64,000 nucleotides of DNA from an uncultured bacterium (GTDB lineage: Bacteria > Patescibacteriota > Minisyncoccia > Phycocordibacterales > Phycocordibacteraceae). The DNA lies in contig CAMTWI010000002.1 of NCBI GenBank assembly GCA_947085505.1, positions 8,681 through 72,680 of the forward strand, written 5' to 3'. A program made the translations under genes and the position numbers. Shown in pieces: positions 2,398-61,601 of the stretch; within the stretch, counting starts at the first letter, position 1; the number at the start of each line of letters is the position of its first letter. The notes under the pieces were generated by a model. It saw nothing but the letters and a program-made list of their open reading frames with translations. It searched no databases and had not been told where the DNA came from.

Positions 2398-2676
2398 CTA
2401 TCGCACACTCACCTGCACTCGGAGATCAAGGGCGTCTGAAAGACGCTGAATAAAGGCAAGTGTGGGATTGGAGTTCCCTGCCTCAAACCGAGCAATCGCG
2501 GATTGCTTGGTTCCTATCTTCTTAGCCAGCTGCGCTTGCGTTACTCCTTTTATAGTGCGAGCTCTGATAAGCGCATCGATGAGTGCAAACTCAAGTTCAA
2601 GTTCATCATAGGATTTCTTAAAACCTGGTTTTCGTAGGAGTTTCTTTTGGAGCTCAGTGTGGCGTACAAGTTTCAT
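2398..2676 (-). CDS. XRE-family HTH antitoxin (HigA-like)
   Basis: 92 aa. The segment GVTQAQLAKKIGTKQSAIARFEAGNSNPTLAFIQRLSDAL is a classic XRE/Cro HTH. It lies directly downstream of a RelE/HigB-like toxin gene. Confidence 0.8.
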   Translation of the reverse strand: MKLVRHTELQKKLLRKPGFKKSYDELELEFALIDALIRARTIKGVTQAQLAKKIGTKQSAIARFEAGNSNPTLAFIQRLSDALDLRVQVSVR

Positions 2677-2682
2677 AAAGAG

Positions 2683-2688
2683 AGTATA
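2683..2688 (-). promoter_or_regulatory. -10-like hexamer TATACT, 6 nt upstream of the antitoxin ATG
   Basis: Minus strand reads TATACT ctcttt ATG. A 7-bp inverted repeat gtataac/gttatac (2684-2703) overlaps it. Confidence 0.4.
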
Positions 2689-2697
2689 ACGTATATG

Positions 2698-3012
2698 TTA
2701 TACGTCTGCAAGTACCTCCTTCTGTACTGCACGTGCGTGCGCTATATCCTTTGCCGAAAGAGCATTGCGTTTCTTTATAAGCGCATGCAGTATGATCGCC
2801 TGATTATTATGGAAACAGTAGAGGAGTCTCACCTGTACGGCTCCAAGGACACGTAATTCAAACAGATTGCGTGCTATTGATCGCGAATACGGCATTCGCA
2901 GGGTATGACCAAGCGCCTCAAGCAAATCGAGAGTTTTCTTCGTTCGCGCATCTAACGGATTGGGGAGGTCTTGAATAAACTGTGCTGCTTTGGGAACGTA
3001 GACGACCTCCAT
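2698..3012 (-). CDS. RelE/ParE-superfamily toxin (HigB / Gp49-like)
   Basis: 104 aa with LRMPYSRSIARNLFELRVLGAVQVRLLYCFHNNQAIILHALIKK, typical of Gp49/HigB-type toxins. The toxin-first gene order matches HigBA. Confidence 0.7.
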   Translation of the reverse strand: MEVVYVPKAAQFIQDLPNPLDARTKKTLDLLEALGHTLRMPYSRSIARNLFELRVLGAVQVRLLYCFHNNQAIILHALIKKRNALSAKDIAHARAVQKEVLADV

Positions 3013-3015
3013 ACA

Positions 3016-3873
3016 CTACGCGTATTCGTTTGGTACCCTTCCGGCTCCGTTGCGGAGCTCTTTCATAAAGCGTGCAGCCTCTTCCTTTGTTGGCGGCTTG
3101 CCATGCCATTTGTAATCGTATTCAATCTCAGGAACTCCCTTGCCCGGAATCGTATGCGCAATAATGAGGGTCGGTTTCTCGGGAATCGCACGTGCATGAT
3201 CACAGGCATCAACGAATGCTTCGATATTATGCCCGTCTATTTCCATTACGTGCCAGCCGAACGCTTCGTACTTCTCCTTAAGAGAGTTAAGCGGCATCAC
3301 ATCCTCGGTCATACCATCTATCTGGATGTTGTTGCGATCCATAACGGCAGTTAGGTTGCCAAGCTCGTATTTGGACGCAAACATAACCGCTTCCCAGGTG
3401 TTCCCCTCCTGCTGTTCTCCGTCCGACATCATGACAAACGTACGGTTCTTCTTCCCGTCCATCTTGAGTGCAAGCGCAATACCGGCAGCTTGCGAGAGTC
3501 CGCTCCCAAGAGGCCCCGAGGTTGTCTCAAGTCCCGGAAGACGGTCTCGTTCAGGATGTCCTTGAAGTCTCGAACCGAACTTGCGAAGCGTAAGGCATTC
3601 TTCAACTGGAAAATACCCTGCATGTGCCATAGCGGAGTAGCGAACCGGCACCGTGTGCCCGTTCGAAAGAATCAATCGATCACGCTCTTCCCAGTCCGGA
3701 TTCTTCGGATCATGTTTGAGTATATGAAAATAGAACGCCGCAAAGAGGTCACTCATACCAAGTGGACCCGCAGTGTGTCCACTTCCGGCTTGTACGAGCA
3801 TGTCGAGAATAGTCTCGCGGATTGCTTCTGCACGCGTCTCAATATTCTTAATGTCGGTGTCAGTGAGCGCCAT
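3016..3873 (-). CDS. transketolase, N-terminal (thiamine-diphosphate-binding) subunit
   Basis: Motifs GSGHTAGPLGMSDLFAAFYF, LSNGH and MSDGEQQEGNTWEA. Confidence 0.9.
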   Translation of the reverse strand: MALTDTDIKNIETRAEAIRETILDMLVQAGSGHTAGPLGMSDLFAAFYFHILKHDPKNPDWEERDRLILSNGHTVPVRYSAMAHAGYFPVEECLTLRKFGSRLQGHPERDRLPGLETTSGPLGSGLSQAAGIALALKMDGKKNRTFVMMSDGEQQEGNTWEAVMFASKYELGNLTAVMDRNNIQIDGMTEDVMPLNSLKEKYEAFGWHVMEIDGHNIEAFVDACDHARAIPEKPTLIIAHTIPGKGVPEIEYDYKWHGKPPTKEEAARFMKELRNGAGRVPNEYA

Positions 3874-3891
3874 GCTCCTTACGATATCATG

Positions 3892-4377: not shown

Positions 4378-4381
4378 ACAT

Positions 4382-4645
4382 CTATCGAGGAAGCGGCTCA
4401 ACAAACCCGTTCTTCGCCCGTAGCTCGTCAGGTGTGTACTGCTTGTTCTTGCTGCCCCCAAAGAGTGAGGAAAGTGCGAACACCATAATAAGGAACGCAA
4501 TCCCCGCAACCGCAAGGAGCACATATTCCGCATTCTTCTCATCTTTCGCAAATCCCCAGCGCACAACGAGTCGTACGAGTGCCGGCGACTGCGTAAGAGA
4601 TGGTACTGAAGCTATTGGCTCTTCGTCAAAAGATACGCCTGACAT
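4382..4645 (-). CDS. small membrane protein, paralog of 5943-6197 (hypothetical)
   Basis: 87 aa starting MSGVSFDEE, then GFAKDEKNAEYVLLAVAGIAFLIMVFAL. It shares MxxVSF(D/E)EE and GFAKDEK plus a TM helix with the 84-aa ORF at 5943-6197. Confidence 0.55.
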   Translation of the reverse strand: MSGVSFDEEPIASVPSLTQSPALVRLVVRWGFAKDEKNAEYVLLAVAGIAFLIMVFALSSLFGGSKNKQYTPDELRAKNGFVEPLPR

Positions 4646-4651
4646 AGGTAT

Positions 4652-4657
4652 ATTCTA
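4652..4657 (-). promoter_or_regulatory. -10-like hexamer TAGAAT, 6 nt upstream of the ATG at 4645
   Basis: Minus strand reads TAGAAT atacct ATG. Confidence 0.4.
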
Positions 4658-4666
4658 GCGTACAAA

Positions 4667-5389
4667 CTATTCGTAGAGACCGTGCCGCTGTGTGAGCTCA
4701 TTAAATTCCTGATACCGACTCCCGAGGTCTGGCGCTTTCCAGAGTGCAGACCCAACAACAAGCCGCTTCACGCCAGCATCAAGAAGCTTCGGCGCATTCT
4801 CAAGCGTAACCCCGCCGTCCACTTGTATCTCTATAGTTGGATAGCGCTTCCGAAAGAGCGCAATCTTTGCTAAGACACGCGTATCAAATGGCTCTCCCAT
4901 ATGTCCAATCTTTCGTATGCCCATGAACTGTACGTAATCGATCTTCTTCAGGTGCGGCTCAATAAGCGCAAGATCAGTCTCAATACCTATAGAAAGACCA
5001 AGTGCAAGGAGTCCTGGCGCAAATTCTGCATCGTGTCCATAGGTGCCATAAGTACTTGAAAGGAATCTCGGAATATAGCGCGTGCTCTCGCTATGCACCG
5101 TGAGTCTCGATGCTCCGAGTCCAATCCATGCACCAGCGGCACTTTCTGGATCAGCACTCATTAAATCAATCTCGAATGTAAGCTCCCCTGCGTACGGCAA
5201 CAGCTCGCCATCTGAGAGCATCTGATCAGGTTCTTTAGGGTCAGTACTGTAGGGCCAACTCGGTGGACCCGCAAACACGCCGTCTACAATATCAATCTGC
5301 ACCTCTTCGCATACCCCAGAGAGTTGCGAGAGTTTTTCTTCGAGGTCTTTTCGTGAGGTCGGGATAATAGCTGGAACGATGATTCCCAT
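4667..5389 (-). CDS. ribulose-phosphate 3-epimerase-like TIM-barrel protein
   Basis: Start trimmed to the ATG at 5389 (MGIIVPAIIP...). QIDIVDGVF and QVDGGVTLENAPKLLDAGVKRLVVGSALW match Rpe-family motifs. It carries an insertion relative to canonical Rpe. Confidence 0.6.
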   Translation of the reverse strand: MGIIVPAIIPTSRKDLEEKLSQLSGVCEEVQIDIVDGVFAGPPSWPYSTDPKEPDQMLSDGELLPYAGELTFEIDLMSADPESAAGAWIGLGASRLTVHSESTRYIPRFLSSTYGTYGHDAEFAPGLLALGLSIGIETDLALIEPHLKKIDYVQFMGIRKIGHMGEPFDTRVLAKIALFRKRYPTIEIQVDGGVTLENAPKLLDAGVKRLVVGSALWKAPDLGSRYQEFNELTQRHGLYE

Positions 5390-5395
5390 AGCTCC

Positions 5396-5401
5396 AGTAT
5401 A
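5396..5401 (-). promoter_or_regulatory. -10-like hexamer TATACT, 6 nt upstream of the ATG at 5389
   Basis: Minus strand reads TATACT ggagct ATG. Confidence 0.4.
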
Positions 5402-5418
5402 CCGCCTGAGTGTTGGTA

Positions 5419-5940: not shown

Positions 5941-5942
5941 AC

Positions 5943-6197: not shown

Positions 6198-6200
6198 ACA

Positions 6201-33691: not shown

Positions 33692-33797
33692 CTTAAACAT
33701 TGTGTCTAAAGTAAGTAGTTTTGTTTGATGTCAGCGAGTCAGACTATCTCAGATCTTATAATTGTATCTTGTATATACGAGACGAGATATTGTTATT

Positions 33798-34703: not shown

Positions 34704-34709
34704 GCATGG

Positions 34710-34715
34710 ATTATA
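34710..34715 (-). promoter_or_regulatory. consensus -10 TATAAT, 6 nt upstream of the ATG at 34703 (leaderless-type promoter)
   Basis: Minus strand reads TATAAT ccatgc ATG. A possible -35 CTGAAA lies 17 nt upstream. The site follows the gatB terminator. Confidence 0.5.
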
Positions 34716-36258: not shown

Positions 36259-36296
36259 AGAAGTGATGCTAGCACAGGCGCAAGTTCCCCCGCCAC

Positions 36297-37277: not shown

Positions 37278-37300
37278 TTTATGCACGATACCACAGAACG

Positions 37301-37329: not shown

Positions 37330-37372
37330 GCGAACAGGCGTTCCTTGAGAATGTATTCACTCACATCAGAAA

Positions 37373-37378
37373 AGGAGG
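37373..37378 (+). promoter_or_regulatory. Shine-Dalgarno AGGAGG for the GTG start at 37385
   Basis: aaAGGAGGtgcgccGTG, 6-nt spacing. Confidence 0.7.
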
Positions 37379-37384
37379 TGCGCC

Positions 37385-44982: not shown

Positions 44983-45093
44983 AGTATGGCCAGTATACTA
45001 CCCGCCGGGCAGGGTACCAGAATCTGCGACCTTAGAGGCTACCTGGTACGTTATAGACAATACGGCACCTATTGGTGCTACGATTCATCTCAT

Positions 45094-46371: not shown

Positions 46372-47504
46372 TCTTCTAGCTGATCTAGAATTGATACGAA
46401 TGAGCTTGCAATTACCCCCACTGAGAAATAGGTCTCGATGCGCTTGCGTGCGGCGAGACCGTACTCTTTTCGAAGGGCGGGGTCCGCGAGCTTCTCGATA
46501 CATCTAGCTAAGTGCTCCGCGTTTCCAGTCTTAAAAATAAGACCTGTTTCTCCTTCCTCCACGTACACATTGCCGCCCACAGTATCACTGGTTATCGTTG
46601 GGAGGCCGCATGCCATTGCCTCTGGAACCACCATGCCAATAGCCTCGCCATGTGTTGGAAGCACCAGTATGTCGTGATCCGCATAGACTTTAGGCATTTC
46701 GCGAGTTGGTACGCACGGAAGAAATATCACCTTATCTTCAACCCCGAGAGACCGTGCCTCTGCGGCAATAGCATCCTTAAGATGGCCTCCGCTTCCTATG
46801 AGTGAGAGCCTGAGATTGATCGATTCGTCAGCAAGCAGACGAAGCGCCCTGAGCATGTCCGTATGCCGCTTGTATGGCACGAACCGAGCATTCATTAGTA
46901 TGCGCACACCATCGTTTAGCGCACTCTTCGATTCAAGGCGTGGTTGAAATAGGACACTATCAACTGGTGCTGGAAGAACCGTTATCCGACACCCTGGCAG
47001 AAGATTCTTAAGGAACGCTTGTTCCTCGGGAGTATAGACAAGGATCGCATCGATATATGCTGCACTCCCTTTCAAAAATCCTATGAAGAACCGTAGCGCC
47101 AGACGAGAAAGAGGATTCTCTGGCCAGCGTCGTGTCTCACTATAGAGTACGAATTTTGTTTCTGGGTGTCTCTTCTTATGTGCCAGGGCTTGAAGCGTGT
47201 ACCAGTGATATACATCGAAAACAACAACGACCGCCGGCATCTCCTTTTCAAGAAAGCGCCGAAGTCCTGATACATACAGTGGAGCTTGTGTTTCGCGTCG
47301 AAGAAACTGCATCAGGCCATGTAGGCCGAAGGTGTGTAATGGCGTGCGCCATATGCGCATGAAGCGCTCTTCTGGAAGCTGAGGCGTGGCCCTTGCAGCA
47401 ATACCTATTAGCCCGTATGTCTCCGAGAGTTGCCCATACAAGGAAACGAGATGTGTCTTGTGGACTACGAGACACACGCTTTTCGTACTTCCTCGCTGTA
47501 CCAT
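46368..47504 (-). CDS. glycosyltransferase family 4 (GT-B)
   Basis: The C-terminal half has LPTHGEAIGMVVPEAMACGLPTITSDTVGG, the E-x7-E GT4 signature. Confidence 0.8.
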   Translation of the reverse strand: MVQRGSTKSVCLVVHKTHLVSLYGQLSETYGLIGIAARATPQLPEERFMRIWRTPLHTFGLHGLMQFLRRETQAPLYVSGLRRFLEKEMPAVVVVFDVYHWYTLQALAHKKRHPETKFVLYSETRRWPENPLSRLALRFFIGFLKGSAAYIDAILVYTPEEQAFLKNLLPGCRITVLPAPVDSVLFQPRLESKSALNDGVRILMNARFVPYKRHTDMLRALRLLADESINLRLSLIGSGGHLKDAIAAEARSLGVEDKVIFLPCVPTREMPKVYADHDILVLPTHGEAIGMVVPEAMACGLPTITSDTVGGNVYVEEGETGLIFKTGNAEHLARCIEKLADPALRKEYGLAARKRIETYFSVGVIASSFVSILDQLED

Positions 47505-47510
47505 ATGCCA

Positions 47511-47519
47511 ATTATATCA
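47511..47519 (-). promoter_or_regulatory. extended -10 TGaTATAAT, 6 nt upstream of the ATG at 47504
   Basis: Minus strand reads TGATATAAT tggcat ATG. Confidence 0.5.
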
Positions 47520-47555: not shown

Positions 47556-48377
47556 TCAATCGTTCTTGTACATAAAAGAATTATTGCCGAGATTGTTAGT
47601 TGTTTTAATATTTGTGAGTTGGAATGCCGGATACTCCTTCTTGATAAATCCAAACACTTCCTCAACCGTTGCATACTCATACGGATACCCGCCCACCCAG
47701 TCCACGATATCGCACCAGTAATCCATACCGCGATTCCCTCGATATTCACGCATCATACGTAATGGATTCTGAAACCGCATGAGCGGCGCGAGAATGTAGT
47801 ACACAAAGAGATATGCATACTCAATGCATCTCTTTGTTAGAGTTGATCCTTGTACATAACGCCGTTTTACACCAAGCCAGAAGTTCGAACCTCGACCTCC
47901 ATCTACACGGTTATAGAGCGCAATGTAAAAAAGTCCTCGAGGGGCGACGAGCCGGGCGGCATTTCGTATTGCCTCCCACATGGATCCTGTGTGATGAAGC
48001 ACTCCCCACGAATAGACAATATCGAAGGTCCCGAGACTTTCAATGTACTCAATATCAAGCACCGACCCCTGTTCAATCTTCCAGTGCGAAGGCTTCCCTG
48101 CCTTCTCCCAAAGTGCACGTGTCGCTTCAACAGAATCCTTGTCGAAATCAAAACTAACTATACGCTCGGCACCAAGAAGAAAAGCGGAATATGAGAAGAG
48201 GCCACTGCCGCAGCCAACATCTATGAGGGACTTGTCTTTTAGGTTCTCGAATCCTGTGAATTCAACGATTGATTCTTTGGCAAGATTGACACGTCCTTCG
48301 TCTAAATCAGAAAGAAATGTCTTCCAATTCTTACCGAATCCAAACCGGGCACTTTTTTCACTTGGGCGTATATTCAT
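47556..48377 (-). CDS. class I SAM-dependent methyltransferase
   Basis: LIDVGCGSGLFS motif I. Confidence 0.75.
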   Translation of the reverse strand: MNIRPSEKSARFGFGKNWKTFLSDLDEGRVNLAKESIVEFTGFENLKDKSLIDVGCGSGLFSYSAFLLGAERIVSFDFDKDSVEATRALWEKAGKPSHWKIEQGSVLDIEYIESLGTFDIVYSWGVLHHTGSMWEAIRNAARLVAPRGLFYIALYNRVDGGRGSNFWLGVKRRYVQGSTLTKRCIEYAYLFVYYILAPLMRFQNPLRMMREYRGNRGMDYWCDIVDWVGGYPYEYATVEEVFGFIKKEYPAFQLTNIKTTNNLGNNSFMYKND

Positions 48378-48383
48378 GGAAGC

Positions 48384-48389
48384 ATTATA
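48384..48389 (-). promoter_or_regulatory. consensus -10 TATAAT, 6 nt upstream of the ATG at 48377
   Basis: Minus strand reads TATAAT gcttcc ATG. Confidence 0.5.
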
Positions 48390-50548: not shown

Positions 50549-51325
50549 TTATAGCGTCTTGATGCCACTATCATGATAGCTGCTTTTCTGGAGAAGAAAA
50601 ATATGTATCGAGGATCCGAGGAGGCGAGCCAACAAGCGTCGCACTGACCACGGGAGATTCTGACCGAACCTGAGCCGACCAGTATAGAACAATCCTCCAC
50701 CGTGCGCTTTAATCACTTGCCATTTCAGACGCAGAAAATGTTTAACCCAGACGTGTGGCATGAAGTGATAGACCTCCATTACAGTATTACCAAATTCGCC
50801 ATGGCGATCACCCACCAGAAAGTCCAGTAGCCCGTTATACCTCCTAAAGCGCGATTGTCCTCCAAGAGCTTTATAGAAAAGTAGCGCAGCTCTCACCGGA
50901 AAGATAATAAAATTTTCGAGCATGTCTCGTAGCTTCCACCAGTGGGTTGGCATGCTGTGAATAGCATGGCCACCTGGTTTCAACACCCGTGCGAGCTCCT
51001 CTTGAAAAGAGTCACGGTGCGCGATATGTTCGAGCACATTCGAGCTGTACACCACATCAAACGACGCATCGGGGAATGGAATATGATGACCATCATAGAG
51101 CGCAACACGGTGATTAGCACTTTCGCGATAATTACTTTCTGCGATTTCCAAGCTTACAACCTCGCCAGCGAGACTTGCAAGAAACTCAGCTTGCACGCCA
51201 GTGCCACCGCCTATCTCTAAAACACGCTTTCCTCGAAAAAGATCACCGTATAGCTCGATGATATCTTGAATCTCCCGTTCGCGGAGTGAATTCAAAAACG
51301 AGATGTTCATATAAGTTTTTGCCAT
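50549..51325 (-). CDS. class I SAM-dependent methyltransferase
   Basis: VLEIGGGTGVQAEFLA motif I. Confidence 0.75.
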   Translation of the reverse strand: MAKTYMNISFLNSLREREIQDIIELYGDLFRGKRVLEIGGGTGVQAEFLASLAGEVVSLEIAESNYRESANHRVALYDGHHIPFPDASFDVVYSSNVLEHIAHRDSFQEELARVLKPGGHAIHSMPTHWWKLRDMLENFIIFPVRAALLFYKALGGQSRFRRYNGLLDFLVGDRHGEFGNTVMEVYHFMPHVWVKHFLRLKWQVIKAHGGGLFYTGRLRFGQNLPWSVRRLLARLLGSSIHIFLLQKSSYHDSGIKTL

Positions 51326-52560
51326 TCAGCAATGATTCTCTCCGGAGAAAAATCAGCAGCAACGAGATCTGCCGTAGCGGCATTGTCTGGCATAGTTCTC
51401 AGTACCTTGGCCAATTCGGTATATGCACCATCCTTCACTTCAAAGAGTGTCGGCTCATCCTCATCTGGAAATGGTGTAACTAGTACACCGCGCGATGCCT
51501 GATACGGGTAGGTAACAGTATCTGACAGCGACAACTCAGGCGCAATAAGTTCCCGCATGCCGCTCGTAGAGTCAACTGAAACTACTGGTACTTCCATAGC
51601 AAGCGCCTCAAGGACAACGTTTGGTAAACCCTCCCAAAGCGAGGTGAGTACGAAACAGCGAGCGTGCCGTAGGAATGGATAAACATTATCCTGTTGTCCA
51701 ATAAAGTGCACCGAGTCTGCAATACCAAGCCGAGCAGCTAGTTGCGGAAGCGCTTCGCGATAGTCTCCATCACCCAAAATGACCAGTGTCGCATCTGGCT
51801 GCTGCTCAAGTAGACGCGCAAAAGCACGTAAGAGATGCCACTGTCCTTTCTGGTACGTAAGGCGACCTATATTGAGATAATATCCACCTTCATCAGCCAG
51901 AAATGCCCATTGCTTTGGTAATGATTCCTTGGCACGTTCTTCAATCAGCACACGATTTATAGGATTATAAATCGTGTGCACGTTTTCCAGACCGAACTCC
52001 GTACGAAGCGTCTCTTCCACACCTCTCGTGACTGCGACTACTGAATCTGCGTGTCGGTAAAGTCTCCGCATCAAGAATTTATAGAAAGGACCGTACCGTC
52101 GCGGATCCATCCGAACAGATACAATTACTTTCAATGGCAGACGGAACAGCAACTTTGCACAAACAACATAGAAGTTTGACTCCTCCAAGAACGAGATGAC
52201 GCTCGTAATTTTGTGTTCTCGGCACACTCGTGCAGTACCGAACATTCTGGCTGTGGCGCGTACGAGTTTTGTGAGACGCCTGCGCCACCGTGGCATTAAT
52301 TGGTAGTCCTTGAGAGCAATACTTAGATTCACGTGCGGCACTATCACATGGTGCTCATTGGTATCTGCATACTGCGTAAGTAACATTGTATTAAGGCCTT
52401 TTTCTTGAAGACCGTTTGCAACCATCGCCGCGACCTTTTCTGCACCACCTCCAACTGCAATAGTCGTGACCGCAACCAAGACTCTCCTAGAGTCTTCACT
52501 TGATCTTGAGGAAGCCATGAGCGTGTTGGCACTCTCCTGCAAAATCGAATTCTCAATCAT
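51307..52560 (-). CDS. glycosyltransferase family 4 (GT-B)
   Basis: GGAEKV N-terminal motif and C-terminal TSLWEGLPNVVLEALAMEVPVVS. Confidence 0.8.
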   Translation of the reverse strand: MIENSILQESANTLMASSRSSEDSRRVLVAVTTIAVGGGAEKVAAMVANGLQEKGLNTMLLTQYADTNEHHVIVPHVNLSIALKDYQLMPRWRRRLTKLVRATARMFGTARVCREHKITSVISFLEESNFYVVCAKLLFRLPLKVIVSVRMDPRRYGPFYKFLMRRLYRHADSVVAVTRGVEETLRTEFGLENVHTIYNPINRVLIEERAKESLPKQWAFLADEGGYYLNIGRLTYQKGQWHLLRAFARLLEQQPDATLVILGDGDYREALPQLAARLGIADSVHFIGQQDNVYPFLRHARCFVLTSLWEGLPNVVLEALAMEVPVVSVDSTSGMRELIAPELSLSDTVTYPYQASRGVLVTPFPDEDEPTLFEVKDGAYTELAKVLRTMPDNAATADLVAADFSPERIIAEWQKLI

Positions 52561-52566
52561 GCGTGC

Positions 52567-52572
52567 ATAGTA
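52567..52572 (-). promoter_or_regulatory. -10-like hexamer TACTAT, 6 nt upstream of the ATG at 52560
   Basis: Minus strand reads TACTAT gcacgc ATG. Confidence 0.35.
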
Positions 52573-52597: not shown

Positions 52598-53116
52598 TTA
52601 GGGAAGCTCCGAAAGCACCCCTATAACCGGCCACCTCCCATCCCCCTCTTCCCCATCCCGCCGCATCTCAAACAGCTGCAAAGACGGACACCGTGCCCCA
52701 AGTATCTCAAGCTCCACCGGAGAATCGTCGACCAGCACCGCATCGTTATGAAGGTGCGTATGAGGAGCTAGAAACTCTCCTTTGCGGACCTCCCCCGTAT
52801 ACATAACCGACATTCTCGGAATACCCTGCAACGCACTCTTCACCTTTATCTCCTGAAACTCCTTATTCCCAAAGGTAATGATAGTTACGGCATTCTCTTT
52901 CTCACGCAGGAAGCTTGCGGCATCAGGATACAGAAACCGCGAGAGCTCACCTGGTTCGAACGTCAACGACCCGTCCTTAGCGAGATCGTTAATCGCTCGA
53001 TAAAACTCAACAAGCGGTAGCTCGTTTATGGCTTGCCCTTCGAAGCGCTCTCGCAGGTACGGCGTAAACGTATCGGTATCAAACAACGTCCTATCGAAAT
53101 CAAGATAGTACCTCAT
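52598..53116 (-). CDS. HAD-superfamily hydrolase-like protein
   Basis: The N-terminal YLDFDRTLFDT fits HAD motif I (DxDxT). 172 aa. Confidence 0.5.
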   Translation of the reverse strand: MRYYLDFDRTLFDTDTFTPYLRERFEGQAINELPLVEFYRAINDLAKDGSLTFEPGELSRFLYPDAASFLREKENAVTIITFGNKEFQEIKVKSALQGIPRMSVMYTGEVRKGEFLAPHTHLHNDAVLVDDSPVELEILGARCPSLQLFEMRRDGEEGDGRWPVIGVLSELP

Positions 53117-54081
53117 ACAAATAGTGTTGCTATGGCTGCCGCAAGCTTAGCTGGATCGTGACGTACTAGCGATCGAGGGAGCGGGTCGCCCGGTATCGCG
53201 GGTACCGCGTACACCGATACGAGCGGCAATCTGCGCACGCGGGCATCGGACGAAAGATAGTCATCCTTGGGTGGATACTCTCCCTCTTCCGCATACTTTT
53301 GAAGCACATCCTTGGTAAGGTCGCCTTGGTTTATAAAAATAATATCCGGTTCCCTACCGGCATACCGTGCGATTTCCTCTACATGCTCCCGCACCGTATA
53401 GTCTTCAGTCTGACCCATCTTAGTAAAAAGGTTCGAGACATACACCAACCGCGCTTTCGACCCCGCAATGGTCTCCTTTATTCCTTCAGGAAGGAGCGCT
53501 GCGATACTCGACGTGTAGAGATCGCCCGGTCCTATAACGATGAGATCCGCATTCTCTAACGCACTACGCGCTCCCGGCGACATAGGAACAGGATTCTCAA
53601 AGGAAAGCGACGCAATGCGCGAGCGCCCTCCTATGCGCTCATCTATCGCACGCTCGTTTCGCACCGTAACACCGTCTGCGAGCCTTGCAACAAGCGTACT
53701 TGGTGTCTCGGTAGCTGGGATAACGGTTCCGCTCACCCTAAGAATACGTGAGGCTTCTTCAAGTGCTGCCGCATCAGACCCAAGAAGATCGGTAAGCGCA
53801 GTAAGAAAGAGGTTGCCAAGGTTATGCCCCGCAACCGCACCCTTCTCGAACCGATACGCAAAAAGGTCTCGAAGTACGTTCCCGTCCTCAGCTAACGCAA
53901 CCAGGGCCTGGCGTGCATCTCCTGCCGGCAGAAACCCATAGGCGTCCCTCAAATGCCCCGTTGAGCCCCCATCGTCAGCTGAGGTAACTATGGCAGAAAG
54001 AGAGACGTCCGGTAGCCTCCGAAGGCCCGTGAGGACAACGAACGTACCCGTCCCTCCACCAATAGTAACTATGTTCGTCAT
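53113..54081 (-). CDS. YvcK/CofD-family (UPF0052, gluconeogenesis factor-like) protein
   Basis: The N-terminus IVTIGGGTGTFVVLTGL and the size of 322 aa. Confidence 0.7.
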   Translation of the reverse strand: MTNIVTIGGGTGTFVVLTGLRRLPDVSLSAIVTSADDGGSTGHLRDAYGFLPAGDARQALVALAEDGNVLRDLFAYRFEKGAVAGHNLGNLFLTALTDLLGSDAAALEEASRILRVSGTVIPATETPSTLVARLADGVTVRNERAIDERIGGRSRIASLSFENPVPMSPGARSALENADLIVIGPGDLYTSSIAALLPEGIKETIAGSKARLVYVSNLFTKMGQTEDYTVREHVEEIARYAGREPDIIFINQGDLTKDVLQKYAEEGEYPPKDDYLSSDARVRRLPLVSVYAVPAIPGDPLPRSLVRHDPAKLAAAIATLFV

Positions 54082-54087
54082 ACACCG

Positions 54088-54093
54088 ATATTA
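54088..54093 (-). promoter_or_regulatory. -10-like hexamer TAATAT, 6 nt upstream of the ATG at 54081
   Basis: Minus strand reads TAATAT cggtgt ATG. The hexamer overlaps the upstream stop codon. Confidence 0.3.
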
Positions 54094-55227
54094 CTTGGAA
54101 GGTGCGGTATTGTCGCCAGGCTGAATAAAGGCCGCTATGCGCTCCGCTATATCCCCCGCTGCCTGAATATGCCGCTTGGCTGCAGCCTCAGCGTTCATCG
54201 CAAGAAGTTGTCTTGCCTGCCCATCCTCGGTTAGTCCCATAATATGAACTGAAATCGCTGCAGGGTCTCCCGGCGGCATGGCAAGCACGTCATCGTATCC
54301 CTTGAACACTTCCCCAACAATTCCTACGTCAGTTGTAATAATTGGTATACGCGCAAGTGCCGCCTGCAGAAGCCGGCGACCATACCCTTCATACGCACTT
54401 GCCTGAACAAACACATGGGCACTGCGCATGAGGCCCCACGTATCGCGCCGGTCTCCAAGAAATATCACTCGATCCTTCAGCTTCAGCCGTTTTGCATGCC
54501 GCTCAAGCGACTCGCGCTCAGGACCGTCCCCAACCACAAACAGTCCGGTGCCAGGATACCGATCTTTTATACGCGCGAGCGCATCGAGAACGTCAACAAC
54601 TCGTCGCGACGCATCGAGCCTTCCTGCAACCATAAGCCGGAAGGTGAACGGGTGCGGCGGGAACTCAACCGCCTCTGGTATGTGCGCTATAGCAACAGGA
54701 ATAACAACAGGCTCTGGTATCTGGTCTCCATACTTTTTCAGAAGCGACTCCTTCACGCGCTCAGACATAACCCGAATGCCCGTAGCTTCTGGAAGAACCT
54801 TGTCCGCAATCCTGAGTCGTTTCCGGTTCACCCGCGGAACACGTACCTGTGTAGAACGAAACATCCCCGTCATTGAATACCAGGGCGACAAGAAATCAGT
54901 ATCGACATTCACATATAGCGGCAACTTTTCTTTCTTAGCAACCCTCGCACCGAGGGTACCGCGCTCAAACGCATCTTGTGTCCACACCGCATCAATACCA
55001 TGTTCTGCAACAAGAGTATGTGCCTTCGCTAAAAGCGAGGGCTTGAGGAAACCCTCTGTGTTAACGGTATGAATACGCAGACTGCCCTCGTCCCGATCCT
55101 CTGATACGGGAGCCCCAAGGAGAACATGTAGTTCGCCAATAGCGAGTGCATTGTCCCGAACATTCTTGTGTCCAGAACTCCCTTGATCGAGTATGGAAAT
55201 GTCACTTGAAATCAGGAGTACTTTCAT
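54091..55227 (-). CDS. glycosyltransferase (GT-B, family 1/4-like)
   Basis: C-terminal FVQASAYEGYGRRLLQAALARIPIITTDVG. Confidence 0.7.
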   Translation of the reverse strand: MKVLLISSDISILDQGSSGHKNVRDNALAIGELHVLLGAPVSEDRDEGSLRIHTVNTEGFLKPSLLAKAHTLVAEHGIDAVWTQDAFERGTLGARVAKKEKLPLYVNVDTDFLSPWYSMTGMFRSTQVRVPRVNRKRLRIADKVLPEATGIRVMSERVKESLLKKYGDQIPEPVVIPVAIAHIPEAVEFPPHPFTFRLMVAGRLDASRRVVDVLDALARIKDRYPGTGLFVVGDGPERESLERHAKRLKLKDRVIFLGDRRDTWGLMRSAHVFVQASAYEGYGRRLLQAALARIPIITTDVGIVGEVFKGYDDVLAMPPGDPAAISVHIMGLTEDGQARQLLAMNAEAAAKRHIQAAGDIAERIAAFIQPGDNTAPSK

Positions 55228-56522
55228 AAGGAAGCGAGACGCAAGAAGGGCGCAAACAGCGCCTGAAACGCAGAACGCGTCCCTGCCCTGACAGGTTCAA
55301 CTGTCTGGGCAGGGACTACTATCGTTGGAGCATGGATGGGAACTTCCTTACGAACTGGTATCTCGACCGCTCTCAATATAGTAGAACCAGTACCCGGCTC
55401 CACAGGTAGCAGCGTTGGTGTCGATATTGCCGGAGGATACACAAAAGCCACTTCCCCACTCGGATAGCGAAGCTCCATGGAGAGCGTACTTGTTGAAAGA
55501 CCTGTTACCTCAGGCGGAAATATAACGGTACGTCCTGGAAGAATCTGGGTATCCTCAGGAATCTTAAACCGCTCCCTTCCTGAAACTAACTGGTACCGAG
55601 AAAGATCAAGAATTCTTGTGTCGCTATTCTTAAGCGTAACGCCTTTCTCTGAGAGATGAGTGATGCTGATATCAGCGGGATCCGCGATAACAACGAACGA
55701 GGCAGTGCCGTGACTGTAGCTCTCCTGCGCCCGCACCACGACAAGATACTCTCCCGGCTCACGATACACATGCTCAACATCGGTTCCTATATGCCGTCCA
55801 CCATCCCCGAACGCCCACGTGACATACGGATACTTCACATGGCGACCCGTGCTGTCGTACACAATTGGCTGATACTTCGTATGAGTTTTCGTCGACACAA
55901 TACGATCGCCACCAGTCTCTATATAGAGTGTGGGGACGGGGTTCCCGATAACCTTCTTTGTGCTAGGCGTACTCCCCGAAGAGGTCGTACTCGGCGTTAT
56001 AACAGACTCCGTCGCATTCACTGCACGTGGCGTTGCCACGGCCGTAACCCACGACGAGCCATTTCTTTGCGCCGTATACTTGAGTGCACTATCGCCCCCT
56101 ACAACACCTTCCCATCCTCCAGACGCATCAATACGATCCACTTCAGTGGTGCCGTCCATAAGCACGAGTATCTCGCCTGCGTTTGAAAGGCCTCCTCCAA
56201 ACGAGCGAGCGAGATCGGCATCAATACCAGGAACCGGATCAGGACACGCTGTTGGTGTTGAGCGCTCGATAAGATAGAAACCACCCGCATCAATGGAACC
56301 CGAAAGCGTCACCGTCATACCGCCGTCAAGAGTCTTTAAGGTCCAGCCAGACAAAGATACTGATTCAAGACCATCATTTGCAAGCTCTACCCATTCGCAA
56401 AAACTTCCGTTATCAACAGAAGTTCCCATCCAGGCAATCTCGTTTATCACCACCGCAGCACTGGTTGTCATTGGGGCGAATGCTCCAGCAACAACGAGCC
56501 CCATGGCGAGAATTTTATACAT
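55224..56522 (-). CDS. secreted lamin-tail-domain (LTD) protein with PKD-like domain
   Basis: Start trimmed to the ATG at 56522 (MYKILAMGLVVAGAFAPMTTSAA, a signal peptide). VVINEIAWMG...CEWVELANDG...LSGWTL is LTD. WAFGDGG...HVYREPGEYLVVV is PKD-like. Confidence 0.7.
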   Translation of the reverse strand: MYKILAMGLVVAGAFAPMTTSAAVVINEIAWMGTSVDNGSFCEWVELANDGLESVSLSGWTLKTLDGGMTVTLSGSIDAGGFYLIERSTPTACPDPVPGIDADLARSFGGGLSNAGEILVLMDGTTEVDRIDASGGWEGVVGGDSALKYTAQRNGSSWVTAVATPRAVNATESVITPSTTSSGSTPSTKKVIGNPVPTLYIETGGDRIVSTKTHTKYQPIVYDSTGRHVKYPYVTWAFGDGGRHIGTDVEHVYREPGEYLVVVRAQESYSHGTASFVVIADPADISITHLSEKGVTLKNSDTRILDLSRYQLVSGRERFKIPEDTQILPGRTVIFPPEVTGLSTSTLSMELRYPSGEVAFVYPPAISTPTLLPVEPGTGSTILRAVEIPVRKEVPIHAPTIVVPAQTVEPVRAGTRSAFQALFAPFLRLASL

Positions 56523-58212
56523 CTTTAAATAGAGACCGGAGTGTCTCCTCTGGTACCTCAAACACGGGCTTCGGTTCTTTGGGTGCAGACTTTGGAGGAG
56601 GTGGCGCTTCTGGCTTCGGCACAGTCCCAATAGTTGAACGGAGCGCGTCCTTGAGTGACTCTTGCTTCCCTCCCTGCTTCTTCTGCTTGTCCTTCTCGAC
56701 GTTTGCAACGGTTGCTCGCAGAATCGCTTTCAAATCGTCTGCAGTCTTTGCAGCTGCCGGAGGCGCTGGGCGCTCGGTACGCTCCGGTCTTGATGTAGCT
56801 CGCACTTCCTGACGCGAATCTCGAGATAGAGGACGCTCTTCTCTACGCGGCGCGGACATGCCCGGCTTCTTGTTTGATGGACCTGCTGACGCTGCCTTGT
56901 GATTTTGCGCTGCTTCTTCCGCTGCCTGAGAGAGCTCCGTAAGAATAGCGTTCTCAATACCGGCACGCTTAGTTGCGAACTGCTGGCGAGAATTCTCAAG
57001 CACCTCCTGGCGATAGGAACGCGGGGGTGGCTCGATACCCGGAATTGTAACCGCAGAGAATGGCTGGGAACCCACACCGTCAATCATGAGAGACAGATAG
57101 ATCTGTGTGAACCCAAGATTAACTAAATCCTCCTGCAGGAACTTCGGCATGAATACTTTCTCAAGAAGCTCCGCATCAAGCGGTCCCACACGGAAGGACA
57201 CCGTACTGCCCACGTTGCCAAACACGGCAGCCTGCACCTCTTCTTCCATCTGCGCCACGTACTGATGCGCGATAATAAGGCTCAACTGATACTTGCGAGC
57301 TTCAGAGAGAATTTCTGAGAAGCTCTCGTTCGCGAAGTTCTGGAACTCATCGACATAGAAGTAGAAGCTCGGTACTTTCGCGAGCTCATGCGAAGGCAAA
57401 TCTGCACGACTCATGGCACCGAGGAAAATGCGGGTCGTTAACATGGAACCCAAAAGCTGCATGTTCGTGTCGCCAACAAGTCCCTTTGAAAGGTTCACAA
57501 GAAGAATCTTCTTGCTATCCATGAGATCGCGGATATCAAACGACGAATGCGGCTGCCCGATGATGTTTCGGATGAGCGGATTACTCGTAAACTGGCCGAT
57601 CTTGTTCTGAATGGCAGGCGTCGCTTCCTGTGTGTAGCGATCACCGTAGTTCGCGAACTCACTTATCCAGAAATCCTTAACAACCGGGTCCTTAATGTTC
57701 TCCACCACCTTCTTGCGATAATTCTTATCTGTATACATTCGGTTCACACCAAGCAGAGTTGCGCCAGGGTACTCCAGAAGCGCGAGCAAGGTGTTCGTAA
57801 GGATGTACTCCATACGAGCGGACCACGCATCCACCCAAATCTTCTTGAAAGTGGCCATGAGGCCCGACACCACAAGGTGACGCTTGTCGTATCCCACGTC
57901 CTCCATCACGTTAAACGCAATCGGGTTATCAAGATCGAACGGTGCAAAATAAACCACATCCTTCACCCGATCGGCTGGTATGAAATCAAGCAGCTTATCA
58001 ACCGCACTGCCGTGCGGATCAATAAAGGCCATGCCTTCCCCATTCCGGATATCTTGAATGGCCATGTTCTCAAGCATCGTTGACTTACCCATGCCAGTCT
58101 TCCCAATGACATACATGTGCTTCGAACGATCCTTTGCCTTTATCCCAAACGGTACGCGCTTGCCGCGCGCATCCGTCGCGGCAAAATACGTGACGCGGTC
58201 CGGATTCTCCAT
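56515..58212 (-). CDS. TraD/TraG/VirD4-like (type IV secretion coupling protein family) P-loop ATPase with disordered basic C-terminus
   Basis: Walker A is GKTGMGKST and Walker B-like is FYFYVDEFQNF. It also has IDPHG and no TM segment. The last roughly 150 aa are K/P/A/E-rich. Confidence 0.55.
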   Translation of the reverse strand: MENPDRVTYFAATDARGKRVPFGIKAKDRSKHMYVIGKTGMGKSTMLENMAIQDIRNGEGMAFIDPHGSAVDKLLDFIPADRVKDVVYFAPFDLDNPIAFNVMEDVGYDKRHLVVSGLMATFKKIWVDAWSARMEYILTNTLLALLEYPGATLLGVNRMYTDKNYRKKVVENIKDPVVKDFWISEFANYGDRYTQEATPAIQNKIGQFTSNPLIRNIIGQPHSSFDIRDLMDSKKILLVNLSKGLVGDTNMQLLGSMLTTRIFLGAMSRADLPSHELAKVPSFYFYVDEFQNFANESFSEILSEARKYQLSLIIAHQYVAQMEEEVQAAVFGNVGSTVSFRVGPLDAELLEKVFMPKFLQEDLVNLGFTQIYLSLMIDGVGSQPFSAVTIPGIEPPPRSYRQEVLENSRQQFATKRAGIENAILTELSQAAEEAAQNHKAASAGPSNKKPGMSAPRREERPLSRDSRQEVRATSRPERTERPAPPAAAKTADDLKAILRATVANVEKDKQKKQGGKQESLKDALRSTIGTVPKPEAPPPPKSAPKEPKPVFEVPEETLRSLFKDV

Positions 58213-58218
58213 ACAGGA

Positions 58219-58224
58219 AGTATA
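58219..58224 (-). promoter_or_regulatory. -10-like hexamer TATACT, 6 nt upstream of the ATG at 58212
   Basis: Minus strand reads TATACT tcctgt ATG. Confidence 0.4.
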
Positions 58225-58230
58225 CCGCGC

Positions 58231-59622: not shown

Positions 59623-59624
59623 AG

Positions 59625-60707
59625 TTACTGATACTGAATAAACATTGGCTGAGGCGTGAGCTTCAAGAGGTCGCCCGGGGTAAGTAATCGCTCAGAGGGA
59701 GGCTTCAGATCATTCTTATAGAAGATCTTGAATCCCGTGAACTGTACCGGCTCTGGTGCAACGAATTGTCGATAGGTCCCGAGCTTTAAGGTCGGCGGAC
59801 CCCACCCGTCCATATCCATGACAATCTGCACCTCAGGGAGTGGGCGTATGTTCTGATAGTTCGTCACCATCTTCTGCGTGAAGCGATGCACGATGAGCAC
59901 TTTCGGTGGCAAGTCATGCTTCTGTACCAGCTCCGCCATGTACTCAGCCGCATAGTTAATGTCACGTGCATCAAACGAACCGATAACATCTCCGGGTACG
60001 TCGCCATTTGGCATATGGAACTCTGGGTCGAGTCCAAGGTGCACGTTCGGCATAGAGAGGTACTTCTCAAGGAGCGGTAGCTCGTACTCAAGCGTTGAGT
60101 GACCAATCTGAATATCGAGAATAACAATGCCGTCAATCTTCTTGGCAATCTCAACTGCCTTGTCTATCTCAGTGTCCGGCATACGGAGCATGTACCGGTT
60201 CTCCCTTCCCGGTAACGACTGTGCCGTTATCGCGATGTAGTTTATAGCCGGAACGGTTGGCGTTTCCGGGTCCGCCGTCTCCCACTTCTTTTGTTCGCTG
60301 GCTAACATCTGGAGCATCTGAGCTTCCGGGTATTCGCCAAGAACACCCATACGGGTTGAGTAGAAGTTCCCGTAATACGCAATGATGCGATTAAACGGGA
60401 GGAGTGCACCAGCCTTAGGGTACGGTGTTCCCTTCGCAGGCCAGATGCGCTCAGTAGTAGTGGAGGTCGTTGACGCGTAGTTCGCCATCGACAGCATCTT
60501 TGCGTTATACGCCGCAGTATCAAAGACCGGCTTCTCTGGCTCTTTTTTAAAAAGCGTATCGAGTGTTGAGGTACTCGTCTCGCTACCGCGATCGAATCGT
60601 GTTGCGGCTGCGTGCGGAATAACAAGAAGACCGAGAAGGAGTATGACAAGACCGAGCCCAATGATCAAAACGAGCGGATTACGAAGATGTGGAAAGAGAT
60701 GCTTCAT
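59625..60707 (-). CDS. membrane-anchored hypothetical protein (possible TIM-barrel glycoside-hydrolase-like fold)
   Basis: Start trimmed to the ATG at 60707 (MKHLFPHLRNPLVLIIGLGLVILLLGLLVI). No motif was recognised with confidence. Confidence 0.5.
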   Translation of the reverse strand: MKHLFPHLRNPLVLIIGLGLVILLLGLLVIPHAAATRFDRGSETSTSTLDTLFKKEPEKPVFDTAAYNAKMLSMANYASTTSTTTERIWPAKGTPYPKAGALLPFNRIIAYYGNFYSTRMGVLGEYPEAQMLQMLASEQKKWETADPETPTVPAINYIAITAQSLPGRENRYMLRMPDTEIDKAVEIAKKIDGIVILDIQIGHSTLEYELPLLEKYLSMPNVHLGLDPEFHMPNGDVPGDVIGSFDARDINYAAEYMAELVQKHDLPPKVLIVHRFTQKMVTNYQNIRPLPEVQIVMDMDGWGPPTLKLGTYRQFVAPEPVQFTGFKIFYKNDLKPPSERLLTPGDLLKLTPQPMFIQYQ

Positions 60708-60897
60708 GAGAAACGCGGGCAGCTGGCTTTCTGCGGTATGACACGCCAACCGCAACAACACCAAGACCAAAGAATGGCAGTATCCAGGTAAGGATACTCA
60801 TAGGAAGTCCTGAAAACGGCGCCAAGAGCGTGAGAGCGCCGAGCACAATGAGCATAAGACTTCGAGACATTGAGGACAGTATACCCTGCCCCTGCAT
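60679..60897 (-). CDS. small two-TM membrane protein (hypothetical)
   Basis: 72 aa with two hydrophobic helices. The ATG is 5 nt after the rsmI stop. It overlaps the next gene start by 29 nt. Confidence 0.35.
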   Translation of the reverse strand: MQGQGILSSMSRSLMLIVLGALTLLAPFSGLPMSILTWILPFFGLGVVAVGVSYRRKPAARVSHEASLSTSS

Positions 60898-60902
60898 GAG
60901 CG

Positions 60903-61589
60903 CTACGCGGGGGTGACAACAACGACAAACTCGCCCCGTACCTGGTCCTGCTTTTCTCTAAAATGGGCTGCAACCTCAGCAGCCGTACCTTCAACAAAGG
61001 ACTCGAACATCTTCGTGAGCTCGCGAAGCACAATAACCTTCCGATCCTCCTCAAGAACTTCTGTTAATGAGGCCAGCGCCTTCTCGATCCGGTGTGGAGA
61101 CTCGTAAAAGACCATGGTTCGCGTTGAGTCTGCGATTTCCTTGAACATGGTCTGTCTGCCCTTCTTATGCGGAAGGAATCCGAGGAAGGTGAATTCGTCG
61201 GTTGGTACACCGGCAATAGAGAGTGCGGCCGTTACCGCGGCAGGCCCTGGGATAACCTCAATACGAGCATCGTCTCGGAGCGTATTGCGAACCTCACACA
61301 CTAAGGCACTTCCGGGGTCTGAGATACCTGGAGTCCCCGCGTCTGTCACAAGCGCAATGTGCTTCCCTTCCGCAAGCATTTGTAGGATACGGGTCGATGC
61401 ATGGCGGCCGCTTTGTGCATGAAAGATAAGGAGAGGCTTCTGTATATCGTATCGCGCGAGGAGCTTGGCTGTTACGCGCGTATCCTCGCAGGCGATAGCG
61501 TCAGCCGCTTTCAAGGTATCGAGCGCACGGAGCGTGATATCGGCGAGATTGCCGATAGGGGTGGCGACAACGGAGAGAGTGCCCTGCAT
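60903..61589 (-). CDS. rsmI: 16S rRNA (cytidine1402-2'-O)-methyltransferase
   Basis: GTLSVVATPIGNLADITLRALDTLKAADAIACEDTR is the hallmark N-terminus. Start trimmed to the ATG at 61589. Confidence 0.9.
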   Translation of the reverse strand: MQGTLSVVATPIGNLADITLRALDTLKAADAIACEDTRVTAKLLARYDIQKPLLIFHAQSGRHASTRILQMLAEGKHIALVTDAGTPGISDPGSALVCEVRNTLRDDARIEVIPGPAAVTAALSIAGVPTDEFTFLGFLPHKKGRQTMFKEIADSTRTMVFYESPHRIEKALASLTEVLEEDRKVIVLRELTKMFESFVEGTAAEVAAHFREKQDQVRGEFVVVVTPA

Positions 61590-61595
61590 GGAAAG

Positions 61596-61601
61596 ACTGT
61601 A
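61596..61601 (-). promoter_or_regulatory. -10-like hexamer TACAGT, 6 nt upstream of the rsmI ATG
   Basis: Minus strand reads TACAGT ctttcc ATG, directly after a terminator hairpin. Confidence 0.35.

Follow-up and report, generated by a model that had tools for sequence, protein, structure and literature searches.

The window analysed here is a 64,000-nucleotide stretch of contig CAMTWI010000002.1 (assembly GCA_947085505.1, positions 8,681 to 72,680) from an uncultured, ultrasmall bacterium of the Patescibacteriota. At 19 of its 38 gene starts a hexamer of the form TAnnnT lies 6-9 nt upstream of the ATG, and these boxes are very probably promoters that yield leaderless or near-leaderless mRNAs. 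The hexamers would be the -10 elements of housekeeping sigma-70-type promoters, many of them in the extended -10 form (TGnTAnnnT) with a weak or absent -35 element. With the box at this distance, RNA polymerase would begin transcription on the A of the start codon or 1-3 nt earlier, the mRNA would carry no usable 5' leader, and the ribosome with initiator tRNA would bind the 5'-terminal AUG directly, with no Shine-Dalgarno (SD) pairing. About half of the genes in this genome would be built in this way, SD-led initiation being rare. Most other genes, which lie at most 10 nt behind an upstream gene or overlap it, would probably be translated by termination-reinitiation.

A sequence-only reading of the window had drawn attention to ten minus-strand TAnnnT hexamers exactly 6 nt before an ATG (N6). 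All ten are present in the sequence with the hexamer, spacer and start coordinate it listed:

2674..2688, minus strand: TATACT-N6-ATG, start of a 92-aa helix-turn-helix (antitoxin-like) gene, 2676..2398; co-directional gap 21 nt
4643..4657, minus strand: TAGAAT-N6-ATG, start of an 87-aa gene, 4645..4382; gap 21 nt
5387..5401, minus strand: TATACT-N6-ATG, start of the ribulose-phosphate 3-epimerase (RPE) gene, 5389..4667, 240 aa; gap 29 nt
34701..34715, minus strand: TATAAT-N6-ATG, start of a 301-aa gene, 34703..33798; gap 127 nt
47502..47519, minus strand: TGaTATAAT-N6-ATG (extended -10), start of a glycosyltransferase gene, 47504..46368; gap 51 nt
48375..48389, minus strand: TATAAT-N6-ATG, start of a methyltransferase gene, 48377..47556; gap 282 nt
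52558..52572, minus strand: TACTAT-N6-ATG, start of a 417-aa gene, 52560..51307; gap 37 nt
54079..54093, minus strand: TAATAT-N6-ATG, start of a 322-aa gene, 54081..53113; gap 9 nt
58210..58224, minus strand: TATACT-N6-ATG, start of a VirD4/TraG-like ATPase gene, 58212..56515; gap 18 nt
61587..61601, minus strand: TGgTACAGT-N6-ATG, start of RsmI in its 228-aa form, 61589..60903

The ATG is the first of its open reading frame (ORF) at eight of these sites. Those at 5389 and 61589 are internal, the ORFs being extendable upstream by 32 and 14 codons, respectively, while those at 2676 and 4645 open short ORFs of 92 and 87 aa. Public gene calls were taken from an exact-sequence look-up in a public protein collection, together with contigs L001/L002 and L085; proteins of the window also occur on Logan contigs, which match it at 100% identity and were used for gene calls only. 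Nine of the ten genes are called from the ATG listed above (2676, 4645, 5389, 34703, 47504, 48377, 52560, 54081 and 58212). The tenth, RsmI, is called on this contig at 61631 (242 aa) and not at 61589. Most members of the RsmI cluster (at least 90% identity) are 228 aa long, matching the 61589 start, and a hairpin adjoins the box:

61605..61649, minus strand: terminator-like hairpin with U-tract, adjoining the RsmI -10 box upstream; -30.8 kcal/mol, z -3.9

The ATG at 61631 falls in the loop of this hairpin, and the U-tract leads directly into the TACAGT box. The start at 61589 is therefore regarded as the better one, given the location of the 61631 ATG and the 228-aa majority in the cluster. 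The TGn of the extended -10 form is present at only two of the ten N6 sites, and G occupies position -14 at six of them.

The frequency claimed earlier, about 10 of roughly 40 starts with TAnnnT at a fixed position, is reproduced in a table of 38 window starts assembled from the public gene calls: 10/38 starts carry the hexamer at N6 (binomial P 2e-10) and 15/38 at N6-7. TANNNT-N6-ATG strings are not in general excess, since the whole window holds 22 of them on both strands against ~29 expected from base composition. Ten of these 22 strings open ORFs of at least 87 aa, and they are exactly the ten sites listed above. A motif-blind rule, in which the first ATG of every non-overlapping ORF of at least 100 aa is taken and the upstream sequence is ignored, gave 34 genes, with six boxes at N6, four at N7, three at N9 and none at N5. 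We also compared 64 patterns of the form X1X2nnnX6 at 20 offsets each (1,280 tests; offsets 11, 12, 13, 14 and 15 correspond to N5, N6, N7, N8 and N9, respectively). In the window TAnnnT at offset 12 ranks first (P 1.6e-10), and the same pattern at offsets 13 and 15 is also among the top five.

Nine more genes carry the box at N7 or N9, which brings the number of box-bearing starts to 19, all of which use ATG:

160..175, plus strand: TGcTAAACT-N7-ATG, start of a PfkB kinase gene, 173..1168
1391..1408, minus strand: TATACT-N9-ATG, start of a 64-aa gene, 1393..1199
3871..3886, minus strand: TGaTATCGT-N7-ATG, start of the transketolase N-terminal subunit gene, 3873..3016
36256..36271, minus strand: TGcTAGCAT-N7-ATG, start of gatB, 36258..34831
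37275..37290, minus strand: TGgTATCGT-N7-ATG, start of obg, 37277..36297
44980..44997, minus strand: TATACT-N9-ATG, start of a 725-aa gene, 44982..42805, divergent from the flippase gene
45079..45096, plus strand: TGcTACGAT-N9-ATG, start of the flippase gene, 45094..46371
56502..56517, minus strand: TAAAAT-N7-ATG, start of a lamin-tail-domain gene, 56504..55224; gap 10 nt
63152..63169, minus strand: TGcTATCGT-N9-ATG, start of a MurC-like ligase gene, 63154..61853

Two of these, at 173 (TAAACT, N7) and 36258 (TAGCAT, N7), had been named as near misses and are true TANNNT hexamers. The other two near misses, TATATA at 41307 and TATAAA at 50540, end in A and do not fit the pattern. A further TAGTTT-N6-ATG opens a 73-aa ORF (33716-33949, plus strand) in the 617 nt that separate the 301-aa gene from the start of a 4,595-aa gene; the ORF has no match in the public gene collection.

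Position, composition and conservation of the box in related genomes

The window is a Patescibacteria (Paceibacteria-like) contig with a GC content of ~51%. Its SecA (41307..38776) has 71% identity with the protein of a 'Patescibacteria group bacterium' assembled from Hainich groundwater and 53-61% identity with those of Paceibacterota, Wolfebacteria, Vogelbacteria, Nealsonbacteria and similar genomes. The set of genes is typical for candidate phyla radiation (CPR) organisms, with a split transketolase, type IV pilin-like genes, the VirD4/TraG-like ATPase, two giant genes and a polysaccharide cluster. Scans of the window for tRNA genes and Rfam families gave no match.

A positional peak of TANNNT upstream of aligned starts, which the sequence-only reading had proposed as a check, was found in relatives as well as in the window. 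Among 18 CPR secA loci the hexamer lies at offset 12 in 30/215 starts, compared with ~7.5 per background offset and two at offset 11. The identical procedure applied to 41 non-CPR secA loci (Bacillus, Geobacter, Nitrospira, Veillonella and others) gave 5/628 starts. Removal of genes lying at most 30 nt behind a co-directional neighbour leaves the CPR peak in place (20/135, P 4e-7). An independent set of 80 metagenome loci (920 kb, 727 starts), retrieved with the ATPase encoded at 58212 and read with the motif-blind start rule, has the hexamer at offset 12 in 113/727 starts (15.5%, P 4e-66), over a background of 1.9% per offset. The counts in this set by offset are as follows:

offset 11 (N5): 21
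offset 12 (N6): 113
offset 13 (N7): 66
offset 14 (N8): 41
offset 15 (N9): 45

The onset is thus sharp in both sets of relatives (offset 11 vs 12: 2 vs 30 and 21 vs 113). Such an abrupt beginning at N6 fits the shortest distance from a -10 element to the transcription start that would place +1 on the A of the ATG. In the metagenome loci (L091-L170) the profile also dips at offset 16 (16) and rises a second time at offsets 17-18 (49 and 34); these bumps may represent short-leader promoters or an effect of start calling.

In two close relatives, with starts as placed by public gene callers, the box occurs at N6-9 in 7/16 genes (L087, GCA_022844065.1, 84-91% DNA identity) and in 8/19 genes (L088, ~77% DNA identity). 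Orthologues of secA carry it at N5-10 in 15/26 CPR loci. In the secA-linked loci that are more distant (L013-L017 and L041), the 58212 orthologues have no box. Several distant loci (L013-L017, L019, L026, L041, L051 and L064) have no peak and have more SD-like motifs, for example in L064 and L018. The box is therefore not universal across the CPR, and its patchy distribution is in line with the patchy loss of the anti-SD sequence reported for Parcubacteria.

The composition of the start-proximal boxes resembles that of a promoter element. TG is found one base upstream of 29% of them in the CPR secA set, compared with 5.7% of other TANNNT hexamers (p 1e-11), and of 40% compared with 5.2% elsewhere in the 80 metagenome loci (odds ratio 12, p 3e-61). 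A match to TATAAT in at least five of six positions is seen in 47-51% of start-proximal boxes and in 19-22% of hexamers elsewhere (51% vs 19% in the metagenome set), the commonest start-proximal hexamers in relatives being TATACT and TATAAT. Relatives show a modest excess of -35-like hexamers at 16-18 nt (33% vs 13% and 17% vs 11%), with a perfect TTGACA-N17-TATAAT-N6-ATG in several of them. Among the ten N6 sites of the window, a passable -35 is present only at 34703 (CTGAAA, 16 nt upstream) and 52560 (CTGACA, 17 nt upstream). TGn, the -35-like hexamers and the A2/T6 pattern would not be expected of a ribosome-binding element and point to RNA polymerase.

Comparison of nine orthologous pairs (window with L087 or L088) reveals that T1, A2 and T6 are kept at 27/27 positions, compared with 221/297 for other upstream positions (p 7e-4). 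Substitutions within the orthologous boxes fall on the N positions, as in TAAACT/TAGACT and TATACT/TATAAT, and the spacing is kept. The former pair belongs to the PfkB kinase gene at 173, whose L087 box differs at an N position alone, and the latter to the ATPase gene at 58212, whose L088 counterpart has TATAAT at N6. For RPE, RsmI and the ATPase, the box and its spacing form a conserved island amid unalignable sequence: L087 keeps the RPE box and its N6 spacing with flanks that otherwise cannot be aligned, and RsmI in L088 has TGaTACAGT at N6 in a quite different context. The box at 4645 has the same hexamer and the same spacing in L087, and orthologues of the 34703 gene carry the box at N6 in L020 and at N7 in L006. 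A box of the TATACT/TATAAT type lies 5-10 nt before the ATG in 67 of the 77 distinct ATPase orthologues (65-83% protein identity), typically as TTTGnTATACT and often straight after a hairpin.

Two local arrangements were noted alongside. In L087 (8950-8995), the 44 bp separating a pilin-like gene from a divergently oriented fructose-bisphosphate aldolase gene hold two back-to-back boxes, TAGAAT and TACACT, each exactly 6 nt from its own ATG, and nothing else. L088 (8205-8722) has a 167-aa NUDIX gene between MurD and MurC that is absent from the window. TGcTATCGT-N9-ATG and the first codons stand before NUDIX in L088 and before MurC in the window (63124-63169, minus strand). From this common sequence it follows that an indel has shifted promoter and start between the two genes.

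Shine-Dalgarno motifs and classes of gene starts

SD matches of at least 5 nt occur at 3/38 window starts, compared with 8.6% of all ATGs in the window, and there is thus no enrichment. Upstream of CPR starts, base frequencies by position reveal no excess of G, while the non-CPR controls have the usual G peak at -15..-6. Two strong SD motifs had been singled out in the window:

37372..37387, plus strand: AAGGAGGTG-N4-GTG, the only verified window gene with a strong SD; amino-acid kinase family, 37385..38725
61798..61813, minus strand: AAGGAGG-N6-ATG, before a 47-aa ORF, 61800..61657; in no public gene call and absent in L088

The motif at 37385 belongs to a verified gene, which starts with GTG, while all ten N6 sites start with ATG; the motif at 61800 heads an ORF outside the public gene calls. 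This ORF carries a perfect AAAGGAGGAG SD, and a strong terminator hairpin comes after it; the whole region (61605-61813, minus strand) lies between MurC and RsmI. It could be a small gene or a leader-peptide-like element. In L088 the gap between MurC and RsmI is 16 nt and the ORF is missing.

The observation that genes with a box have no SD holds broadly. At 5389, GGAG is found at -6..-3, which is too close to the start for an SD. Apart from this, the only SD-like string among the 19 box-bearing starts is AAGGAG at 3873, in a spacer that reads AAGGGG in L087. Both strings lie within the spacer (-8..-3), and neither is conserved in L087.

The sequence-only reading had two modes of initiation coexisting. 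Box and SD do both occur, but the SD mode depends on a single verified gene and another class of starts had been missed. Nineteen of the 38 window starts have the box at N6-9. About 14 genes lie 2-10 nt behind an upstream gene or overlap it and have neither box nor SD; these are probably translationally coupled through termination-reinitiation. One verified gene, 37385, has the strong SD. A few others (secA, GAPDH and the giant genes) have -10-like boxes 17-32 nt upstream, a distance that implies short leaders lacking an SD. A dual model with SD-led initiation at the genes lacking a box does not describe this window, in which SD motifs are not enriched and the non-box genes mostly sit in gaps of at most 10 nt or overlap.

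Junctions of the form stop-N2-4-ATG with neither box nor SD recur among the tightly packed genes (TAAtctATG, TAAtgtATG, TAGgtATG, TAGtgtATG and TAActATG), as do ATGA overlaps. The stop-N2-4-ATG junctions are found at 6689, 6197, 5940, 4377, 3012 and 59622 on the minus strand, and also in the pilin genes of L087. They suggest a stereotyped junction for termination-reinitiation. The giant genes are adjacent on the minus strand (7891-18861 and 19394-33181) and encode 3,656 and 4,595 aa, the latter called with a TTG start. They share a 161-nt stretch that is 86% identical (~8613-8773 vs 20519-20678), and their fragments are named 'helix-turn-helix domain-containing protein' in the sources.

Competing explanations and boxes inside gene arrays

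The earlier proposal that a -10 box sets the transcription start at the ATG is supported by the position of the boxes and its statistics, by their promoter-like composition and conservation, and by the lack of SD enrichment, all of which are observed. From these we infer the transcription start point, leaderless translation and the activity of boxes in gaps of 9-37 nt. The pattern could instead be an artefact of selective start reading, of A+T-rich intergenic composition, or of upstream stop codons in a compact genome. Two of the ten ATGs are indeed not the first in their ORF and two open short ORFs, gene callers that learn motifs could prefer such starts, and the TANNNT background reaches 2-4% per offset in A+T-rich relatives. 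Against this, the motif-blind rule still finds six boxes at N6 and four at N7 among 34 window genes, and peaks are seen again in two further sets, of 215 and 727 starts. The adjacent offsets provide an internal control, offset 11 being at or under background; identically processed non-CPR loci show no signal; and the peak survives the removal of short-gap genes. An artefact is hardly credible.

Several observations weigh against the reading of the boxes as leaderless promoters. The box is about as frequent in co-directional gaps of 1-30 nt (25%) as at divergent junctions or long gaps (17-33%), which by the logic of GeneMarkS-2 argues for a translation signal. Consensus two-hexamer promoters show no excess in the window, with 8 found against 16.9 expected, 8 against 8.2 and 3 against 5.6. 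That scan was accordingly not used as support, and it supplied only the -35-like matches for 34703, 52560 and a leadered secA promoter. Spacing of N9 would give leaders of 2-3 nt, so that these mRNAs would not be strictly leaderless. The pyrimidine at -1, present at 10/10 sites, was dropped as evidence for a transcription start because it is not specific. T or C stands at -1 at 35/38 window starts and G at none, box or no box, and in the CPR loci L003-L022 and L091-L170 T accounts for 45-50% and G for 8-12%, while the non-CPR controls are flat. This preference may reflect a transcription-start context, a reinitiation context, or both.

The frequency in short gaps would suit a hexamer that acts as a non-SD translation signal on leadered or polycistronic mRNA, of the group B type known from Bacteroidetes, for instance a site at constant distance from the AUG that is A/U-rich, lacks structure or binds S1. 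SD motifs not being general, genes internal to a transcript would need some other feature to recruit ribosomes, and T at -1 and A-rich second codons are general at starts of the lineage. Yet the 7-12-fold enrichment of TGn and the enrichment of -35-like hexamers concern contacts of RNA polymerase. Invariant T1, A2 and T6 with variable positions 3-5 are the signature of recognition by sigma region 2. The sharp lower bound at N6, the near absence of the motif from overlapping gene pairs (1/17) and its frequent location directly after terminator hairpins also speak against a ribosome signal, which we consider improbable.

A narrower alternative concerns only the promoters proposed to lie inside packed arrays. 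Six of the ten boxes do stand in co-directional gaps of 9-37 nt, too short for a terminator (54081, 9 nt; 58212, 18 nt; 2676 and 4645, 21 nt each; 5389, 29 nt; 52560, 37 nt), and three of them are conserved. Overlap with the upstream stop codon, which had been mentioned as well, was found only at 54081, where the hexamer opens with the TAA that ends the upstream glycosyltransferase gene. Active promoters might be confined to sites after terminators, in long gaps and at divergent junctions, the six short-gap boxes being weak, silent or incidental and their genes served by upstream promoters through translational coupling. In relatives, an upstream TAA or TAG stop codon likewise supplies the TA of more than half of the hexamers in short gaps. 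TGn is rarer in this class (3/19) than at divergent junctions (7/20), and many neighbours with gaps of 2-10 nt have no box. These observations give the alternative some weight. However, no stop codon is involved in five of the six window cases. The boxes at 5389, 4645 and 58212 and their spacing are kept in diverged relatives (L087 or L088) while the gap sequence changes, and the ATPase box occurs in the great majority of orthologues irrespective of the upstream context. We thus consider it unlikely, though a good deal less so than a translation signal, that the short-gap boxes are weak, silent or incidental; the six are likely to act as promoters.

One of these six belongs to the second gene of a toxin-antitoxin pair (2392-3016, minus strand), which consists of a Gp49/HigB-like gene (3012..2698) and an HTH_3 gene (2676..2398). 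The pair is a ~625-bp insertion located exactly between the genes for the transketolase N- and C-terminal subunits. In L087 the pair is absent and the two transketolase genes overlap by 8 nt. The antitoxin gene carries its own TATACT-N6 box.

Relation to known systems and significance

In extended -10 promoters (TGnTATAAT), known from E. coli and Gram-positive bacteria, a TG precedes the hexamer at a distance of one base, the -35 element is weak or dispensable, and A2 and T6 are invariant. The boxes described here resemble them in these respects. Unlike the classical promoters of this type, which produce leadered mRNAs, they are placed such that +1 would meet the start codon.

In group C of GeneMarkS-2, leaderless genes are diagnosed by a TANNNT located 6-8 nt from the start codon (Lomsadze et al. 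2018, PMC6028130). The group comprises ~90% of Actinobacteria and 97% of Deinococcus-Thermus, with 25-50% of transcripts per genome affected (PMC6028130; MetaGeneMark-2 preprint). Mapping of transcription start sites in M. tuberculosis verified the leaderless TANNNT layout (Cortes et al. 2013, PMC3898074). There, TANNNT is the sole conserved promoter element, no -35 is found, and toxin-antitoxin genes are mostly leaderless (PMC3898074). The window resembles group C in the distance of TANNNT from the start, the poor -35 and an ATG that would stand at the 5' end. It is also similar in the share of transcription units affected (~25-50%), the coexistence of an SD-led minority and the use of the motif to correct start miscalls. 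As in M. tuberculosis, a toxin-antitoxin gene is predicted to be within the leaderless set. The differences are equally clear. The genome is a Patescibacteria genome of medium rather than high GC content, and TGn accompanies 29-40% of start-proximal boxes in its relatives, compared with 7% in M. tuberculosis. Its non-box genes mostly lack an SD and lie at most 10 nt from the upstream stop, whereas internal genes in group C are modelled as SD-led, and the box retains its full frequency in very short co-directional gaps. Transcription starts were mapped in M. tuberculosis, while those proposed here are predicted from sequence.

Group B, found in Bacteroidetes (PMC6028130), shares with the window the lack of general SD use and an A/T-rich motif at a fixed short distance that also occurs within co-directional arrays. 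In group B practically every gene is preceded by the motif, which shows none of the TAnnnT, TGn or -35 structure. In contrast, the box of the window is promoter-like, follows terminators, occurs at about half of the starts and is missing from overlapping or coupled genes. Leaderless genes of archaea (group D of GeneMarkS-2) likewise have a promoter at a fixed distance from the start, no 5' untranslated region and no SD. Their signal is a TATA box with the transcription factor B recognition element (BRE) ~22-26 nt upstream and belongs to a different polymerase machinery.

The anti-SD motif is missing from the 16S rRNAs of about half of Parcubacteria (Tsurumaki et al. 2022, PMC9297842). In the same broad lineage, gene starts of the window and of its relatives have almost no SD motifs, which is consistent with that report; the report covers rRNA and not what replaces SD-led initiation. 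The perfect 9-nt SD at 37385 suggests that the anti-SD may be retained in this particular genome. A literature search on leaderless initiation in CPR, Patescibacteria, Saccharibacteria or Parcubacteria found no such paper; its coverage of subscription literature was partial, and an earlier mention is possible. The mechanism itself is textbook knowledge for Actinobacteria, Deinococcus and archaea, is implemented in modern gene finders and is not new biology; the lineage and the extent are the points of note.

Across this CPR genome and ~100 related loci, gene starts show no associated signal other than the box, and SD is essentially unused. This pattern fits the anti-SD loss published for about half of Parcubacteria and complements it functionally. 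It is also of some interest for how these reduced organisms initiate translation. In practical terms, gene starts in CPR metagenome-assembled genomes can be corrected with the box signal, as in the case of RsmI, operon predictions from short gaps may mislead in these genomes, and TGnTATACT-N6-ATG cassettes could be used in expression tools for the few cultivable Patescibacteria. We tentatively extend the reading to a large clade of Patescibacteria (Paceibacteria/Parcubacteria-like), at somewhat less than even confidence. Its members might express their genes almost free of SD, with one-third to one-half of the genes having their own minimal extended -10 promoter at the ATG and being leaderless, including genes 9-40 nt behind the previous one, and with nearly all the rest translated by termination-reinitiation across junctions of 2-10 nt. 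If this is true, it would be the functional counterpart of the loss of the anti-SD and of ribosomal components reported in these organisms, and the 'operons' of these genomes would largely be arrays of one-gene transcription units.

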